DNA from: an uncultured delta proteobacterium
GTDB lineage: Bacteria; Desulfobacterota; Binatia; UBA9968
Direction: 5' to 3'
Length of the DNA: 64,000 nt
Assembly: GCA_963840855.1 (NCBI GenBank)
Contig: CAWJBB010000002.1
Span: 1 to 64,000 of the forward strand
This document shows positions 2,513-48,985 of this stretch, one piece after another. The translations under genes and the position numbers were made by a program. The notes beneath the pieces are model-generated. The model was not told the origin of the DNA and ran no database searches. It was given only the letters and a program-made list of their open reading frames with translations. Each line of letters starts with the position of its first letter. The first letter of the stretch is position 1.

Positions 2513-3904
2513 CTAACCATCGACATAACCCACAAACTTGCCCAAAGCGCGAGCCGCGCGCGTAACCGAAGGATAAACGGGAATTCCCAACCGGTCGCAG
2601 GTTTGCTGTAATTGGAGCCCCGCCGCGAAGGCATCGATCGATCCTAACGCCCGGCAGACAACGATCATCGGTTTTTCACAATGGGGATGAAAATTTTCCA
2701 ATGTTTCGATCATCTCACTGAGGATTTTTTCTCCTTTGGGGTTGCCCAGGGTTTGATCGACACGCAGAACCACGATCAAAACATGAATCGCCGACTCGCC
2801 GGCGACAAGTTGTAGTATTCTTTGCAGCTCACGCGAGCGTCGCATGACATTGAGATCAAGTGGATTGTTGACGCTGGTTCCGGGAAGGGGTGTAAACTCG
2901 CGCAAGGCACCTTGGGTCTCTTTTTTCAGTTCGGGCACGATCAACCCGGCATGCTCCAAGTCGTCGGCCGCCTGAATCGCGTCACCGCCGCCGATTCCAA
3001 CAACGCCAACATTTCTGCCGGCGGGAGTCGTCACCGACTGGCAGGCGAGCAGCACATCCATAAGCTCTTCCATGTCAGCGACCGGCACAGCCTTGGTCTG
3101 CGCCCATACGGCTTGCCATGCTTCGCGCGCGGCCGGCGCTCCGGTGTGCGCTGCTACGGCTCTGGAACCGGCTTCACTTGTGCCGCCTTTAAGTATGACC
3201 ACCGGTTTGGAGCGGCTTACCTCGGCCAACGTCTGGTGGAAGGCATCCATGTCGAGCACGCCTTCAATAAAAGCTCCGATCACTTTCGTTTTTGGATCGC
3301 GCCCGAGAAATTGCAGCAATTCCGTTTCATTGATGTCGGCTGCATTGCCGTAGCTGACGACGGTGCTGAAACGCAATCCGCGCACGGATGCCATGCGCCC
3401 CAAATCGCTGGCATTGCCGCCACTTTGTGAAATCACGGAAACGCTTCCTGCATCCTTGGGTGAATGAGTGTTGAACGTAAGGCCGGCACTTGGGCGGTAA
3501 ATGCCCATACAGTTTGGACCGAGAACACGCAATCCGCCGCGCCGCGCGATGTCGACGACCTGCCGCTCCAGTTCGATACGCTCGGGAATCCTGGTTTCGC
3601 TAAATCCGGCGGTGTAAATGTGCAGCAGCTTGACTCCTTTCGCGACACATTCTTTAGCCAGCGCCGGAACGTCGTGCGCCGGAAGACAGCAGACGACATG
3701 GTCTACGGAACCGGGAATCTCATTCAAGCTCGAATAACACCTGTGACCGGCAACTTCTTGATACTTAGGGTTCACCGGATAGATGCTCCCACGAAACTCC
3801 GCTCTTTTTAGAAAGCGGATCGTTGAGTTGCCGCGTTTTTGTGGGGTGTTAGTCGCGCCAACGATGGCAACGCTTGCCGGTGTCAATAATGAATCGTCAA
3901 TCAC
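2513..3904 (-). CDS. CoA-binding protein, acetate/acyl-CoA ligase (ADP-forming) alpha-subunit-like
   Basis: SVAIVGA, IYPVNP, RVLGPNCMG, SQSGG, VSYGNAADI, AAHTG (phospho-His), NNPLD. Confidence 0.9.
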   Translation of the reverse strand: MIDDSLLTPASVAIVGATNTPQKRGNSTIRFLKRAEFRGSIYPVNPKYQEVAGHRCYSSLNEIPGSVDHVVCCLPAHDVPALAKECVAKGVKLLHIYTAGFSETRIPERIELERQVVDIARRGGLRVLGPNCMGIYRPSAGLTFNTHSPKDAGSVSVISQSGGNASDLGRMASVRGLRFSTVVSYGNAADINETELLQFLGRDPKTKVIGAFIEGVLDMDAFHQTLAEVSRSKPVVILKGGTSEAGSRAVAAHTGAPAAREAWQAVWAQTKAVPVADMEELMDVLLACQSVTTPAGRNVGVVGIGGGDAIQAADDLEHAGLIVPELKKETQGALREFTPLPGTSVNNPLDLNVMRRSRELQRILQLVAGESAIHVLIVVLRVDQTLGNPKGEKILSEMIETLENFHPHCEKPMIVVCRALGSIDAFAAGLQLQQTCDRLGIPVYPSVTRAARALGKFVGYVDG

Positions 3905-3921
3905 TGGGGCCTCCTCACGAG

Positions 3922-4314
3922 CTAGCCCAGCTTTTTCTCGCCAACCGGTTGCACATTAAGAAAACCATGCTCTGAAATGTCGAAATAATTACCATCCGGA
4001 TCCGAACCGCGGGTTTCCGCATAGGGCCGTCCGTTCGGGCGTGACTTGGGCAATTTGTTGGGATTAATCCTTTTCATCTTCTCGACGATGGCTTCGCCGT
4101 CTTCCACCTCAAAGCCAAAATGATACAGCCCGTTGGTCGCGTTTTGTTCGTGATTGGGGATGATGGCGAGGTTAAAATAACCATCGCTGAGGAAAATGGT
4201 TCCCCCTTCCACTTTACTCTTGTGAATCACCTTCATATCGAAGACGTCCATATAAAATGAAGCTAATTTTCCTGTGTCTTCCGTACGTATGGCCAGATGC
4301 CGAAGTTTCGCCAT
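3922..4314 (-). CDS. VOC/glyoxalase family protein
   Basis: MAKLRHLAIRT...FLSDGYFNLAI...GLYHFGFEV...DPDGNYFDISEHG; start re-called at ATG 4314 with AGGAGG RBS. Confidence 0.88.
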   Translation of the reverse strand: MAKLRHLAIRTEDTGKLASFYMDVFDMKVIHKSKVEGGTIFLSDGYFNLAIIPNHEQNATNGLYHFGFEVEDGEAIVEKMKRINPNKLPKSRPNGRPYAETRGSDPDGNYFDISEHGFLNVQPVGEKKLG

Positions 4315-43299: not shown

Positions 43300-43485
43300 T
43301 GAGTGGAGTTCCATTACAAACGCGGTGTAGTAGGTCACCAATCCGCGGACTGTCCACACCTCGGTCGTGAAGAAATCCGCCGCGAGGAGCGCCGGCCAAT
43401 GCGCGAGCAGAAAGGTGCGCCACGCCATCTGCTCGGCTCCACGCCGCATCCAGATGAGGCGTTCATCGTTCAGACGATGCGCCAC
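43300..43485. pseudogene. Integrase-core (rve) transposase fragment, internally inverted
   Basis: Minus strand WRTFLLAHW...ADFFTTEVWTVRGLVTYY...ELHS; plus strand LGSTPHPDEAFIVQTMRH. Confidence 0.75.
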
Positions 43486-43950
43486 AGCGTGCCACTGAGG
43501 CCTCAACCGATGACGCGCACGCGCAGGGTGGGCCGGCGCGCATGAGTTGGGCCAGGCTGCTCAAACGAGTCTTCGACATCGACATCGAACACTGCTCGAA
43601 CTGCGGCGGCAGCTTGAAGATCATCGCCACCATCGAAGATCCGCCGTTGATTGTCAGAATCCTTATTTCATCTGGGCCTGCCGACCCGCGCCCCGCCGCA
43701 GCGATTCGATCTATTCCAGACAATCTGAGGAGCCGAAACCGGTTGCCAACGCCAGCCGACGGAGCCGCTCGCTCTGAGTTCGAGCGAGCGGCGCAATAAA
43801 AAACAAATCGCGCCTCTCCGACCGCTGCGCCGCCCAAGTCAGCCGAAGCAACACCGGGGGTTTCACTAAACGCACGTGCGCTTGACGGCTCGCGGGTTCG
43901 GCGATATAGCTCCGGGCAGAAAAAAAAGGTGATTTAAATTTCCTATACAT
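43486..43950 (+). mobile_element. IS91/ISCR-family 3' fragment with oriIS (direct repeat copy 1)
   Basis: MSWARLLKRVFDIDIEHCSNCGG; ends GATTTAAATTTCCTATAC, matching the oriIS consensus; near-identical to 47121-47577. Confidence 0.88.
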
Positions 43951-44228
43951 ATGCATAGGATTTCCTGAGCATTGAAGAAAACCAGAAGCGAGAGAACTCG
44001 AGCGAAGAAGTTCTGACGCAACTCTGGCCCAAAGCGATCAAGCTGGCCAACGAGCTTTTGCAATGGGCGGACGCACCCTAGTAGTTATAGTTGTCCAGCT
44101 ACTTTTCTTTATTGTATTCATCCCGTCCGTCCCGGCGCAGACGGGTAGCCGTTTGCTTGACAGGCTCGATTTCACGAAACAAAAGATATCGTCCAAGGGG
44201 GACAAGCCGGCTCAGGGGTGGCGCGGTC

Positions 44229-45176
44229 ATGGGTGACTTGATTAGCATTCTGATTCCCACTAAAGGGCGTATCGACGAACTTCAGCAGCTTCTCCAGAGC
44301 TTGTCCGAAATGAACGGGCGAGACTCAATTTTTCACGAGATCTTAATCATTAATAATGCAGCCGATCAAAACACCGCCGAAAGCGTAGAAGAACTCGTTC
44401 AAAGCTACATTCGGCTCGAAGGTGATCAGTGGAAGCTCGTGCGCGAACCGGTTGCCGGTAAGTCTCGGGCTCTGAATCGAGGGATCGCACTCGCGCGTGG
44501 CAACATTTTAGCATTTCTGGACGACGACGTGGTAGTTACTCCTTCCTGGCTGACTGCAACGTCTAACTTCTTCGCGCAATCTGAATTCGACGTTAAACAG
44601 GGGGCAATCCATATTCCACCTGCTTTGATCGGGAATGAGGAGTTTCTAACGCTCTTGCGGCAATATCGAACAATATTCTATCTCATGAAAGCCGATTCCG
44701 ATGGACAAAGCATCAAGAGTCTTAACGGCGCGAATCTGGCCATAAGACGCGATCTATTACAAAAGTCGGGCTATTTCGATGAGCGACTCGGTCCCGGCGC
44801 GTCGGGAACGTCCATGGACAGCGAATTCGGCGAAAGAGTCAAAAAGGTCGGCGGACGGATCGGCTACGAATCGAAGTCGGTGGTTTATCATCAGGTCGAT
44901 TGGAGGCGACTGACCGATAAGTATTTTCGCTGGCGCAATGAAGCGGAAGGCTGGAGCAATTATCTTTATAAGGACATCAGGCTCGATGCCATCCTATCTA
45001 ACCTGCTGTGCTCGACCGCCCGCTTCTGCTTCTATTCGTTATTGGGTTCGAAGCGCAAAAAATACCGTATGAAGGGACGATGCTTCCGCTATCATGTCAT
45101 GCTGAAAGCGAAGCTGCGCGACCGCGGCAACTACGCAACATCTTCTTTTAAATTGCGATTGAGGCGTCAACATTGA
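44229..45176 (+). CDS. Glycosyltransferase family 2
   Basis: ISILIPT, GKSRALNRGI, AFLDDD, GANLAIRR, FDERLG. Confidence 0.92.
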   Translation: MGDLISILIPTKGRIDELQQLLQSLSEMNGRDSIFHEILIINNAADQNTAESVEELVQSYIRLEGDQWKLVREPVAGKSRALNRGIALARGNILAFLDDDVVVTPSWLTATSNFFAQSEFDVKQGAIHIPPALIGNEEFLTLLRQYRTIFYLMKADSDGQSIKSLNGANLAIRRDLLQKSGYFDERLGPGASGTSMDSEFGERVKKVGGRIGYESKSVVYHQVDWRRLTDKYFRWRNEAEGWSNYLYKDIRLDAILSNLLCSTARFCFYSLLGSKRKKYRMKGRCFRYHVMLKAKLRDRGNYATSSFKLRLRRQH

Positions 45177-45290
45177 TGAGAAGTCTCGTCAAGTCTCGGC
45201 TGAAAGCTGTCGCCTAAAGGAAAGCCCAAGGTTTTGCTCGCGTCAAAGACGCTGAGTGATCGTTCCATACAGGTCGTGAAAGAGAGGATC

Positions 45291-46391
45291 ATGCAACCTT
45301 TCCGCGTAATGTACATCGTCAAGCAGTTTCCACAAATCTCGGAGAGCTATATCAAAACCGAGATCGAGGCGATCCAGGGAAAATGCGAAGTCAGGATCAT
45401 CACCACAAAGAAAGCATCGATGCCGGCGACGAATCACCCGCCTTTTTGCCATATCGATAAACTGGCAACGATTCGGGAAGCGATTGAAGACTTTCGGCCC
45501 CACGTCCTCCATACCCACTGGCTTCATTCCGCCCGATTGCTCGGAGAACTCTCCAAACAATGTAAAATCCCATTCACGGTCAGGACTCACTCCTTCGACT
45601 CAATCTGGGACGATACTCATGTTACGTCAGGCTGGAGGCGAATTTTCGGCCGCAGCTCCCTACCGCCTCATGTTCGTGAAGCTATTGGGTTCATTCGTAG
45701 CCACCGATGTTTGGGTATCCTCGCCTTTCCGTTCAACCGCGCTCGGTTGGAAAAGGCGGGTATCGCCGGAGATAAGATCACCGACTGCCATCCGGTGGTG
45801 AACTATCCGCTGTTCCATGACACCGGGCCCAATGGCGATGCAATCATGAACGTCGGCGCTGCCATCACAAAAAAGAAAATGGAAGATTTCATTGATCTCG
45901 GGTCGATGCTACCCGAGCGAAGCTTTAATTTGTACGCGATGGCTTATGACGTCGACAAGCTCCACAAACTCAACGAGTCCAAAGGGAAGCCGATCAACAT
46001 CGTCACCCCCATCGAGCTCGAGGACATGCCGGCGCAGTATAAAAAACACGAATGGCTTGTCTATACCGCGCGCATGGATATGGCCAGTGTCGGCTGGCCT
46101 ATGTCCGTCGCCGAAGCCCAAGCCTCGGGAGTCGGAGTTTGCGTCGCCAATATCCGTCCCGATCTAAAAGAATACGTCGGGGACGCCGGCTTCTTGTTTA
46201 ATTCCGTCGGTGAAGCCCTGGAAATCATCACCAAGCCGTTCCCGGAGGAAATGCGACAAAGGGGATTTGATCAAGCCAAGAAGTCCAATATCTTTGAGCA
46301 TCGAGCACTGCTTTTTAAACTCTGGCAAAAGGCCAGTCCGGCACATTTCCAAGACCACCAAGAAGAAATTCAAGCCGAGATCAGCACTTAA
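45291..46391 (+). CDS. Glycosyltransferase family 4 (GT-B)-like
   Basis: FPQISESYI, LHTHW, KK, GWPMSVAEAQASG. Confidence 0.85.
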   Translation: MQPFRVMYIVKQFPQISESYIKTEIEAIQGKCEVRIITTKKASMPATNHPPFCHIDKLATIREAIEDFRPHVLHTHWLHSARLLGELSKQCKIPFTVRTHSFDSIWDDTHVTSGWRRIFGRSSLPPHVREAIGFIRSHRCLGILAFPFNRARLEKAGIAGDKITDCHPVVNYPLFHDTGPNGDAIMNVGAAITKKKMEDFIDLGSMLPERSFNLYAMAYDVDKLHKLNESKGKPINIVTPIELEDMPAQYKKHEWLVYTARMDMASVGWPMSVAEAQASGVGVCVANIRPDLKEYVGDAGFLFNSVGEALEIITKPFPEEMRQRGFDQAKKSNIFEHRALLFKLWQKASPAHFQDHQEEIQAEIST

Positions 46392-46569: not shown

Positions 46570-47362
46570 CAAACTATCCAAAAGCCGGGAGGGATTCTGA
46601 ACTGCGCGTGGTATCTGGGTTTCTCATCGAAGAGCAAGGCATGACCTAAGCTCGCTTTTGCCCCTGCAAGCGGCCTCGTGCACCTACCGCCTTGCGCTCG
46701 GGCCACGAGCGGGACAGAAGGTGCTGAGCTTGCAAAGCCTGCCGAGCGCAGACAAATCATCCACACCGGACCTGTGTGCCAAACTCCACGGCTTCACTCT
46801 TCATGCGGCAGTGCGCTGGGGCGCCGATCAGCGCCAACAACTGGAGCACCTGTGCCGCTATATCACCCGCCCGGCGATCGCCAATGAACGGCTCAAGCGT
46901 AACCGCGCCGGCCAAGTCGTGTTGCAACTAAAGAGTTCATACAAAGACGGCACCACCCATATCGTCATGGCGCCGCTGGAATTCATGCAGCGCCTCGCCG
47001 CCCTGGTGCCCCGTCCGCGCTTACATCTGATCCCGTTCGACAGGCTCAGGGCAGGCCGCTTCCATGGCGTGCTCGCGCCCAACGCGAAGTTGCGGGGTAA
47101 AATCATTCCTAGTCCGGCGGAGCGTGCCACTGAGGCTTCAACCGATGACGCGCACGCGCAGGGTGGGCCGGCGCGCATGAGTTGGGCCAGGCTGCTCAAA
47201 CGAGTCTTCGACATCGACATCGAACACTGCTCGAACTGCGGCGGCAGCTTGAAGATCATCGCCACCATCGAAGATCCGCCGTTGATTGTCAGAATCCTTA
47301 TTCATCTGGGCCTGCCGACCCGCGCCCCGCCGCAGCGATTCGATCTATTCCAGACAATCTGA
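46570..47362 (+). pseudogene. IS91/ISCR-family rolling-circle transposase, 5'-truncated
   Basis: GFTLHAA, LEHLCRYITRP, DGTTH, LVPRPRLHLI..RFHGVLAPN, WARLLKRVF; degenerate upstream (FLIEEQGMT). Confidence 0.9.
47033..47056 (+). repeat. REP unit inserted in frame in the transposase (PFDRLRAG)
   Basis: ccgttcgacaggctcagggcaggc splits the conserved RLHLI|RFHG motif. Confidence 0.8.
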
Positions 47363-47577
47363 GGAGCCGAAACCGGTTGCCAACGCCAGCCGACGGAGCC
47401 GCTCGCTCTGAGTTCGAGCGAGCGGCGCAATAAAAAACAAATCGCGCCTCTCCGACCGCTGCGCCGCCCAAGTCAGCCGAAGCAACACCGGGGGTTTCAC
47501 TAAACGCACGTGCGCTTGACGGCTCGCGGGTTCGGCGATATAGCTCCGGGCAGAAAAAAAGTTGTTTAAATTTCCTA
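47121..47577 (+). mobile_element. IS91/ISCR 3' end, direct repeat copy 2; oriIS interrupted by intron and resuming TACAT at 48589
   Basis: GTTTAAATTTCCTA|intron|TACAT versus ATTTAAATTTCCTATACAT in copy 1. Confidence 0.88.
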
Positions 47578-48588
47578 GGAGCGGCCAGCAGAGCCGCGAG
47601 ACTTGGAAGGTGAAAGTCCTTCTGCCGTCAATTGCTCGATTCGGACGGCTAGCATATCCACTGCTCGGCGAGGTAACGGACCGAGATAGGCGTGGACGTA
47701 AAAGCCACGGCTGCCCAGTGCAGGGAACGGCGGTGGGTCGGGGCCATGGGAATCGGACTGAGGGCCAGTGCGAAAGCGCTGGATTACCCACCGAACCCTA
47801 AAGCGGCGATACCCTGCTGGACCAATAGGCTGCGCTGAGGTGGGAACGACCTGGGTGGCGAGCAAATCCGGAGGCCTGAACATCAGAGAATGGCTGCAGC
47901 CCCGAAATTAAACCCCGGACTGAAGTCGTTGTCCGGATCTTGTGGAGTGCCGACCCAGTTAGGAAATGGGGAAGGCCGATGTCCTGTGGGAAGAAACGAG
48001 TAAGCGCACCACAGGGACCGCCGGGGTAAGGGTCCAGGCATCTGGGGAAAGATTTGAGGGTGTAACGCTGGGAAGGTGCTATGTCCAGCAGGGGCTGGTG
48101 GCAACCTGCAAAGACCTGTCGACCAAGGCTATGACCGTAGGTGGCAGGAGGGCATAGGATTGGCGCATGAGCCCGTAGGAGCGACGAAGAAGGGGTAACA
48201 CCCTTCGAGGAGACGCATCAGGTCTCCCTCTGGGTCGGTAACGCCGGCCGGAGGCGAAGGGGCTCTGGGTACTTGGTGGTCCCAGGTGGGAGGCGGTTCC
48301 GGACACAGAGCCGGGAGTTAACCGACCTTCGAAGCAGGGACTAGTTTGTGAGCAAACCAGTTGCGGCGGGGTGTACGCGTACCAGCGCTTTAGCTTCGAT
48401 GCGATCTGGGAAGGCGAACAAAGGAAAGGCCAAGATCAGAACCGGACTCGGGAAACCCGACCGTCCGGGATCGCAGGGAGGCTTGTGGAAACGTGGTGAT
48501 TATGGGAGCCGGACTGAGGCCCATCGGGAAACCGATGGATTAGCCACCGTACCCTACCATTACGCGCGCGCCACATTTCTATCCCGAC
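47578..48588 (+). ncRNA. ORF-less group II intron (IIB-like, 1011 nt)
   Basis: 5' GGAGCG; GGTGAAAGTCC, AGCCCCGAAA, DIII-like GTAGGAGCGACGAAG..GGTAAC..GCGAAGGGG; DV ccggac-tcgggaaacccga-cc-gtccgg (48442-68); DVI with bulged A 48581; 3' CCCGAC; EBS1/EBS2 match the 5' exon. Confidence 0.9.
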
Positions 48589-48985
48589 TACATTGCCGTG
48601 ACAATGACGTTCTTGGTGACGAGCGTCGCGGCGCAGAACGTGCCGTTCGTCTCATCGGCGAAAGCCCCGACGCCGCGTAGCGCTGACCCGCTGCCGTTCC
48701 GCCAATCAGCTGTCCTTTGTCCATCGAGGGATCATCATCGCCAGCTTCCGTCGCGGACGAGCAACCGACGGTGGCGAGGATGGACGTCACCAGAGTCTGG
48801 CGAGAGCCCCGAGATATGCCGAGCGCATACCGAGCCAACGAGCAAGCTGCATACCGTCACGTCGCTCCCGCGATTCCACGTGTTCGGAGGGATGAGGGGT
48901 CGATCGACTGCACGCCAGTGTGTGTGTGCAAAACCCCGGGACATTGGACATTCATGATCTCGATTCATCCGCTACTACCATCACG

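Follow-up and report, generated by a model that had tools for sequence, protein, structure and literature searches.

The 64,000-nucleotide (nt) stretch of DNA analysed here, hereafter the window, comprises positions 1 to 64,000 of contig CAWJBB010000002.1 from an uncultured delta proteobacterium (assembly GCA_963840855.1; Desulfobacterota; Binatia; UBA9968). It harbors an insert of 1011 nt that splits the core of the rolling-circle origin (oriIS) of an ISCR/IS91-type insertion sequence (IS) as TTCCTA^TAC, 3-4 bases from the IS terminus. The insert is a non-autonomous group II-type intron that lacks an open reading frame (ORF), belongs to a widespread lineage with a GGAGC 5' end and an AAC in domain V (DV), and probably retrohomed to the ISCR/IS91 oriIS core by means of a reverse transcriptase (RT) supplied in trans. 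The central claim of an earlier note on the window, an ORF-less group II-type intron with guides that read the IS91/ISCR oriIS core, is supported both by covariation of the guides with their targets and by recurrence of the insertion in five ISCR-like ends.

Excision of the insert yields the sequence GTTTAAATTTCCTA|TACAT, and the intact IS end located upstream in the window (43932-43950) reads ATTTAAATTTCCTATACAT. The two ends had been described in the earlier note as the same; 18 of the 19 bases agree, and the first position differs (G versus A). The positions given there for the insert, for the 3' TACAT, for the intron-binding sites of the exon (IBS1 and IBS2) and for the corresponding exon-binding sites of the intron (EBS1 and EBS2) were all found to be right when the window sequence was re-read. 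The sequence 5' of the insert is a repeat of 43486-43926, after which the intact copy continues as ...TTTAAATTTCCTATACAT. A BLASTN comparison of the region with its own genome revealed similarity to about 30 IS fragments, which stops exactly at 47577 in the invaded copy and reaches 43948-43953 in the intact one. Since the bases flanking each boundary differ, the boundaries of the insert are fixed and no shift is possible. The insert is present as a single copy in the assembly (7.1 Mb, 93 contigs). The same genome contains 24 sites with at most one mismatch to TTTAAATTTCCTA. TAC follows in 18 of them and GGAGC in one, the window copy, and the remaining five are without IS context. Seven exact copies of the 14-nt IBS2-IBS1 site were found; one is occupied, and the other six are followed by T and are empty.

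The invaded element carries the mark of IS91/ISCR membership, an HUH transposase of the Y2 type. The ORF at 46658-47362 matches Pfam Y2_Tnp (65.7 bits) over profile positions 85-177 only, and Y2_Tnp was detected at 13 places in the genome. Because this match is partial and the IS homology starts at 46648, the invaded IS copy is 5'-truncated. Copies in the same genome have the conserved end about 500 nt beyond the Y2_Tnp match, on its downstream side and in matching orientation, and the transposase of a sister copy (359 amino acids, aa) shares 45-47% identity with ISCR1 and ISVsa3 (ISCR2) family transposases found on plasmids. The end itself reads AAAAAAAGTTGTTTAAATTTCCTA|(intron)|TACAT in the window and AAAAAGGTGGTTTAAATTTCCTATAC in the sister copies. 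The corresponding ends are AAAAAGGTGGTTTATACTTCCTATACCC in ISCR1, about 220 nt past the stop codon of the transposase gene, GGGCGTTTATTCTTCCTATACG in ISVsa3, where the core is likewise about 220 nt downstream of the gene, and GGTGCTTTATACTTCCTATAC, occurring twice, in a third, plasmid-borne element of the IS91 family. The core GTTTAnnnTTCCTATAC is thus located downstream of the transposase gene in all three of these elements on plasmids. In IS91, according to passages of PMC13181058, the right end downstream of tnpA is oriIS, and transposition needs its last 82 base pairs together with the adjacent tetranucleotide. Based on the core common to ISCR1, ISVsa3 and the third element, and on the position of oriIS in IS91, the intron splits a part of the origin that is conserved across ISCR/IS91 lineages; together with the Y2_Tnp remnant upstream, this bears out the target named in the earlier note. 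As a separate observation, Escherichia coli plasmid NZ_LT985250.1 (locus L245, 1-2600) carries ltrA, which encodes a group II intron RT/maturase, with its end about 670 nt upstream of the transposase gene of an IS91-family element; the oriIS motif of this element occurs there twice, 62 nt apart.

Pairing between the insert and its exons is complete. In the window, all of the 7 + 6 + 1 = 14 guide positions are complementary to the exons at IBS1, IBS2 and IBS3. The two pairings proposed in the earlier note, EBS1/IBS1 and EBS2/IBS2, are exact complements and covary across the family, and EBS3 has been mapped in addition. For the pairing test, 68 elements in 26 distinct target classes were used, and pairings of exons with their own guides were compared with 650 cross pairings. 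With the EBS1 loop of their own element, the last six bases of the exon form 6/6 pairs in 23 of the 26 classes and 5/6 in the other three, versus 6/6 in 47 of the 650 cross pairings. At the EBS2 site, at least five of six pairs were formed in 14 of 26 own and 89 of 650 cross pairings, in a fixed-window test that misses variable spacing. In 31 of 32 elements, the alignment column at 48029 is the Watson-Crick complement of the base that opens the 3' exon; for the next best column the count is 21 of 32. The guide-target pairing goes far beyond chance, and EBS1, EBS2 and EBS3 pair with IBS1, IBS2 and IBS3 as in group II introns.

The structural features of the insert are those of a group II intron with an altered core. 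At gathering scores, Rfam gave no match in the window. At E-value thresholds, two colinear matches were obtained, namely, D1D4-4 at 47604-47732 (39.9 bits; E-value, 4.9e-7; gathering threshold, 49) and D1D4-6 at 47863-48036 (21.9 bits); family member L028 passes D1D4-4 (49.9 versus 49). The DV/DVI model RF00029 had no match on 47300-48900 up to E = 10. Canonical group II introns start with GUGYG; their DV is a hairpin of about 34 nt with a 2-nt bulge and an AGC (or CGC) triad, and their domain VI (DVI) has a bulged A located 7-8 nt from the 3' end AY. The window insert and its family start instead with GGAGC(R)GCC, and the ends conserved in the family are 5' GGAGCAGCCGACAAGGCUGC and 3' GCGCGCGCC...UUCUAUCCCGAC. 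It is because of the GGAGC 5' end and the AAC in DV that the Rfam DV model misses the insert. Truncation of the intron at its 5' side was also considered, as GUGCGGGAR stands just 5' of GGAGC in L028 and L041, and was rejected: this stretch is the 5' half of the DV of a host intron, and is paired by the guides as exon.

The DV of the family has its 2-nt bulge five pairs from the triad position, as in canonical DV, and the facing strand has one extra base (G-GA-U). An identical 32-nt core is shared by 118 of 124 family DVs; the core of the window copy is one base off, a variant seen once. The closing pair 1-34 covaries between G-C and C-G (77 G-type 5' contexts with 80 C-type 3' contexts, and the reverse in 36 with 36), and compensatory changes occur at those upper-helix positions that are free. 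Instead of the AGC triad, AAC stands opposite G-GA-U in all 124 DVs, which were retrieved with a pattern that fixed AAC; AAC is also present in the DV of all five relatives retrieved by overall similarity. Among 25 DVI sequences, 20-25 form the pairs of the basal and middle helices, and a single position can show as many as six pair types. All 25 have the bulged A (position -8) and the penultimate A; 24 end in C and one in U. Thus, of the features that the earlier note called recognisable, DVI and the 3' AC stand as described, and DV is present with AAC instead of AGC behind a 5' end that is GGAGC and not GUGYG.

The RNAalifold consensus of 22 diverse members follows the usual group II domain order, with the assignment of domains II-IV being tentative. 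The RT/maturase gene that mobile introns carry in domain IV is missing from the insert: Pfam gave no match for the three overlapping ORFs of 100 aa or more, in agreement with the earlier note. Domain IV still carries sequence similar to the 5' ends of intron RT genes, which makes descent of the lineage from an RT-encoding intron probable. In genomes of the same order, RT-encoding introns of the canonical type possess the same long DVI, with its distal module and the GGCGCGCC stretch, and have an ordinary AGC DV that is recognised by RF00029. The module, 51 nt in length, occurs twice in the insert (47748-47798 and, in distal DVI, 48504-48554). Its two copies have 41 of 51 bases in common, differ in the stems in a compensatory manner, and take the form GGG..CGGACUGAGG-hairpin with GAAA loop-GAUUA..CCACCG..CCC. 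The DVI copy of the module is found in the canonical RT-encoding introns of related genomes as well.

Coordinates of the features of the insert and of the flanking IS copies in the window
Feature	Position	Strand	Basis
5'-truncated ISCR/IS91-like element: transposase remnant and oriIS end to TTCCTA	46648..47577	+	Pfam; genome homology
IBS2, GTTTAA	47564..47569	+	Exact complement of EBS2 (47908-47913)
IBS1, TTTCCTA, last seven bases of the 5' exon, within the oriIS core	47571..47577	+	Exact complement of EBS1 (47960-47966)
ORF-less group II-type intron, 1011 nt, 5' GGAGC to 3' ...CUAUCCCGAC	47578..48588	+	Colinear sub-threshold Rfam matches; ends common to the family
Lineage-specific domain I insertion with the 51-nt module at 47748-47798	47720..47835	+	Most family members lack window-intron positions 143-255; one DNA contig skips 47720-47835
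EBS2, UUAAAC	47908..47913	+	Complementarity; family covariation
EBS1, UAGGAAA, in the loop of a CCCA/UGGG hairpin	47960..47966	+	Complementarity; family covariation; aligns to the hairpin loop of the D1D4-6 model
EBS3 (A), pairing with the first 3'-exon base	48029..48029	+	Complementarity of the alignment column
Domain III-like multi-hairpin domain closed by GAGCCC/GGGCUC (tentative)	48169..48265	+	RNAalifold consensus of 22 diverse members
Domain IV without ORF; e.g., CGGACACAGAGCCGG (48300-48314) resembles the 5' coding end of intron RT genes	48268..48438	+	Likeness to the L018 outer intron and the C87 intron (products ...PRTQSR / RRTQSR)
Domain V, 34 nt, 2-nt bulge (CC), AAC replacing the AGC triad	48439..48472	+	Comparison of family DVs
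Domain VI, long, bulged A at 48581 (position -8), distal module 48504-48554	48476..48585	+	Helix covariation, 25 sequences
3' exon: IBS3 (T48589) and remaining IS end TACAT	48589..48593	+	TAC after TTCCTA in 18 of 24 genome sites, also in ISCR1, ISVsa3 and the third IS91-family element
Second, uninvaded IS-end copy (3' end of transposase gene and intact oriIS)	43465..43950	+	98.7% identical to 47121-47577 over 460 nt, continues to TACAT

The two ISCR-like ends of the window (43465-43950 and 46648-47577) are in direct orientation and bracket two glycosyltransferase genes (44091-45176 and 45234-46391). Neither of the bracketing copies has a complete transposase gene.

Related genomes, as well as plasmids of Niallia, Mycobacterium riyadhense and Cupriavidus, contain relatives of the insert with about 70% identity, and a scan of species-representative genomes with the DV sequence retrieved at least 120 stretches. 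The record titles among the matches listed include Bacillota, Actinomycetota, Acidobacteriota, Desulfobacterota, Planctomycetota, Chlamydiae, Proteobacteria and two archaeal metagenome-assembled genomes. The DV scan fixed AAC and the metagenome scan described below fixed the junction, so that neither gives an unbiased frequency, and kin among the loci are not independent. When the window intron was compared with 85 loci by nhmmer, nearly all of the copies proved to be contiguous over 850-1011 nt, without room for an ORF, and mostly without positions 143-255 of the window intron. No RT was detected inside family copies in the nine ORFs tested upstream of partial copies, and an ORF with RT and GIIM domains at L094, tried as a family-encoded protein, was rejected, as it belongs to the host intron. 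The earlier suggestion that an ORF was lost after the insertion is therefore contradicted: in the copies examined, the family as a whole is ORF-less. The closest named relative, with 83% identity over the last 224 nt, is located on plasmid p1 of Cupriavidus sp. KK10 (L040, locus 3228-4224); it is cut off on the 5' side at a 239-aa ORF of the opposite strand, and its 3' exon starts with CACAT.

Many copies of the family reside within the terminal loop of DV of ordinary group II introns, where the 5' exon is ...GAGCCGTGTGCGGGAG and the 3' exon AACCGCATGCACGG.... Such insertions include L041 on M. riyadhense plasmid NZ_OY970457.1, L094, L058, L111, L125, L139 and L159. This location explains the maturase ORF just upstream of the copy in M. 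riyadhense, as well as the RT and GIIM ORF in L094. Insertion into the DV loop should block the host intron unless the parasite leaves first. A further copy lies in domain I of another intron (L039), and in L120 and L102 copies are arranged head to tail, with the 3' end of one directly followed by the GGAGCAGCC of the next. Being without RT and nested in other elements, the family behaves as a non-autonomous parasite of other mobile elements. Searches by tblastn for a Y2 transposase near the 120 species-representative loci and the earlier relatives gave no match at E 1e-5; thus, none of these loci is in an IS91 context.

The lineage directed to oriIS was recovered from metagenomes with the pattern AAWTTCCTA joined to the family 5' end. 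Of the 78 stretches obtained, 15 continue as a window-type intron and 63 as unrelated sequence. Five of the metagenome contigs carry a copy at the same position of an ISCR-like oriIS end, and these copies have 86-95% identity with the window intron over 880-1011 nt (98% in L204, which comprises 112 nt of it). In L168, the intron is preceded at a distance of about 230 nt by the end of a 432-aa ORF with Y2_Tnp (108 bits); in L204 and L234 it is preceded by transposase C-termini and oriIS, and L181 has the same 3' exon as L234. Upstream of the L196 copy there is oriIS sequence, and its 60-nt 3' flank is 95% identical to C85:53647-53706 of the genome studied here, which follows an empty oriIS. An orthologous site is therefore occupied in the relative and empty in the own genome. 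The 3' exons of the five ISCR-like copies start with TAC where known. The introns are more similar to the window copy than their IS flanks are (95.2% versus 85.7% in L234, 94.5% versus 82.9% in L196, where the flank measures 41 nt only, and 85.6% versus 75.7% in L168). This difference fits movement of the intron from one diverged IS copy to another; a more strongly selected RNA could produce it too. The recurrence of a sub-lineage with these guides at one and the same position of diverged ISCR-like elements identifies the oriIS core as its homing site.

With regard to mobility in the genome of the window, no match to GIIM was found in the assembly, and the single RVT_1 match lies within a canonical group II intron at C87:46408-49611 (L162; D1D4-6, 182.6 bits; RF00029, 41.1 bits). 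The RT/maturase gene of this intron, the only intron RT found in the assembly, is a remnant, frameshifted and spread over at least four reading frames. Since the sole intron RT is frameshifted and the six other perfect sites are empty, the window copy is probably stranded in its own genome. Regarding expression, words of the stretch occur in the 20 public runs listed, none of which holds half of them, and contigs of the reads were compared for one DNA run and three RNA libraries from three studies. Contigs of the RNA libraries match long parts of the intron at 93-100% identity. One is identical over 269 nt and extends 2 nt beyond the 3' end into a different exon, and another represents an uninterrupted oriIS of another copy, which is indistinguishable from an empty site. 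Together, these contigs give a weak hint that relatives of the insert are transcribed.

The following route would account for the insertion. Being on the same strand as the transposase gene, the element would be co-transcribed with it. If mobile group II introns are taken as a guide, the RNA, once excised and in complex with the RT/maturase of an ordinary group II intron, would pair through EBS2-EBS1-EBS3 with GTTTAA-(A)-TTTCCTA|T and reverse-splice into the top strand between TTCCTA and TAC, whereupon the RT supplied in trans would copy the RNA into DNA. IS91 elements go through single-stranded circles, as stated in the passages of PMC13181058 referred to above. The oriIS core, which is multi-copy and conserved, would therefore make a good homing site. 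The insertion places 1 kb between the subterminal oriIS sequences and the last IS bases, and the origin function of this copy, already 5'-truncated, should thereby be disabled. With this IS copy truncated beforehand, the freezing of cargo proposed in the earlier note is a conjecture.

Several results weigh against targeted retrohoming into oriIS. The two hallmarks of active group II introns, GUGYG and the AGC triad, are missing and there is no RF00029 match, so that the activity of the RNA is not assured. No contig of the three RNA libraries joins TTCCTA to TAC, although contigs are not suited to reveal splicing and uncovered parts of the intron carry no meaning, and the contigs that do match may be derived from DNA and come from relatives, not from this locus. 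Among 72,556 plasmid records, four match part of the intron, none of them in an ISCR end. A search of the class for the 5' junction was positive in two of 401 genomes, one being the window's own and the other (G711) holding a partial match with a different 5' exon. Moreover, the other ten of the 15 metagenome copies with the same EBS1 (L172, L176, L183, L189, L191, L205, L226, L230, L236 and L238) are at sites that share only a motif of about 14 nt, being preceded by (G)GTTGAATTTCCTA or GGTTAAAATTCCTA, and have no further similarity in their flanks. In the copies with a known 3' exon, it reads TCCGTT (two copies) or ATCCTG (one), not TAC. A Y2 transposase was found in none of the five of these copies that have 1.5-3.6 kb of upstream DNA; one of the five upstream regions has an IstB and one a serine recombinase on the other strand. 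The motif GGTTGAATTTCCTAT was absent from all of the 401 genomes of the phylum sample. The idea that homologs also occupy oriIS thus holds for five of the 15 metagenome copies with the same EBS1, not for the other ten, and for none of the species-representative loci. As the same guides are found at sites that share only the short motif, the programme reads this motif and not the IS as such. The share of the sub-lineage that resides elsewhere is beyond the reach of the metagenome pattern, which required AAWTTCCTA at the intron start. The stranding of the window copy has its own caveat, in that an RT gene could be missed in an assembly that is 94% complete, with 8% contamination.

Three other explanations of the insert were weighed. 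The family could consist of decayed, non-catalytic group II introns that multiply passively with their hosts, in which case the guide match would record one old insertion. The replacement of AGC by AAC, the lack of a 5' GUGYG and of an RF00029 match, the lack of an ORF, the absence of an intact RT from the genome and the six empty perfect sites all fit such a relic. We nevertheless regard it as unlikely. The 32-nt DV core is identical in 118 of 124 members even though the elements are only about 70% alike overall, and DV and DVI show compensatory changes; this invariance and these changes indicate that the RNA is under purifying selection. Guides and targets match within each of at least 26 target classes, and the occupancy of an orthologous site differs between L196 and C85.

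An RNA that acts without protein has also to be considered, that is, a hydrolytic nuclease or integrase similar to the HYER ribozymes, cutting or invading single-stranded oriIS DNA and the DV loops of rival introns as a weapon between mobile elements. In favor of this, every family copy examined is ORF-less, cis sites of other mobile elements are the targets, IS91 is described in PMC13181058 as passing through single-stranded circles, and ORF-less group IIC introns cleave DNA, as the consulted sections of PMC12990946 report. This explanation is nonetheless improbable, as the conserved bulged A of DVI and the full set of EBS1, EBS2 and EBS3 speak for branching and reverse splicing of the kind known from ordinary mobile introns, fixation of the RNA into DNA would still require an RT, and many copies lie inside RT-encoding introns. 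The HUH transposases nick near the invaded end, and the insert is only 3-4 bases from the IS terminus; accordingly, the IS transposase or a recombination event might have attached a 1-kb piece at the oriIS nick site, with incidental complementarity. Fourteen complementary positions at three structurally expected guide sites leave this close to refuted, and both ends of the insert are exactly those conserved across the family at unrelated targets. We consider such a joining very improbable, and favor retrohoming of a non-autonomous intron.

Homing of introns into other mobile elements has precedents. Intron RmInt1 homes into ISRm2011-2. The target of E.c.I4 is IS3-family transposase genes, according to the parts of PMC3522654 consulted. 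Both introns are similar to the element described here in having a natural homing site in another mobile element, but they are autonomous and insert in transposase coding sequence, whereas the RNA described here is non-autonomous and occupies an origin that is non-coding and cis-acting, 3-4 bases from where the IS ends. Introns of class C rely on a DNA hairpin together with short IBS1/IBS3 for target recognition, and are not known to have an EBS2. The group IIC-attC introns of integrons resemble the present element in that a cis-acting recombination site of another element is their target (PMC8876359, in the sections available); the element described here differs from them by using EBS1, EBS2 and EBS3, by being far larger and by lacking an RT. 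The HYER ribozymes are, as here, multi-copy ORF-less group II derivatives that recognise their targets by base pairing. Based on the available sections of PMC12990946, HYER1 is a class IIC RNA of 637 nt with a 6-nt target recognition site, whereas the insert has 1011 nt (about 850-1011 nt in the family), EBS2 and EBS3, and a long DVI with a bulged A; it is therefore not a HYER member, for which class IIC, about 640 nt and a single 6-nt recognition site are typical. Closest in way of life are the nested ORF-less introns of Thermosynechococcus, Trichodesmium and Methanosarcina, which, like the family described here, have no intron-encoded protein, presumably use the RT/maturase of related introns and home into group II introns (PMC4424553 and PMC12584367, as far as their accessible text goes). 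Those introns, however, are close derivatives of RT-encoding introns of the same genome and have a canonical DV, whereas the present family spans many phyla, has GGAGC and AAC, and includes one lineage aimed at a transposon origin.

A census of group II introns published in 2022 requires a match to RF00029, according to the consulted portions of PMC8919778. As this model fails on the family, censuses based on a DV model undercount bacterial ORF-less introns. In the open-access literature, no description of the ORF-less family or of an oriIS-targeted intron was found; the supplements of PMC8919778 and of the HYER paper, which are outside that coverage, might list such elements. The family as a whole has a fair chance of being an unrecognised class.

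ISCR elements assemble and move many resistance gene clusters. The core TTCCTATAC is common to the target described here, ISCR1 and ISCR2. A more far-reaching reading, which is possible and which we hold only tentatively, would make the window copy a member of an unrecognised, wholly ORF-less class of ribozyme retroelements derived from group II introns, with a rewired core (AAC opposite GA for AGC/GU, and GGAGC for GUGYG), missed by DV censuses and hyperparasitic on the best-conserved cis sites of other mobile elements, namely the DV loops of RT-encoding introns and the oriIS core of ISCR1/ISCR2-type elements. If this is true, the oriIS lineage would be a natural RNA-programmed inactivator of rolling-circle transposons. 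For ribozyme biology, the wider family carries more weight, as it is large, ORF-less and present in many phyla, and has an invariant DV in which the canonical triad is missing. Such a DV leaves two possibilities, a group II active site that accommodates the rewiring, or a means of spread for these RNAs that has yet to be described.

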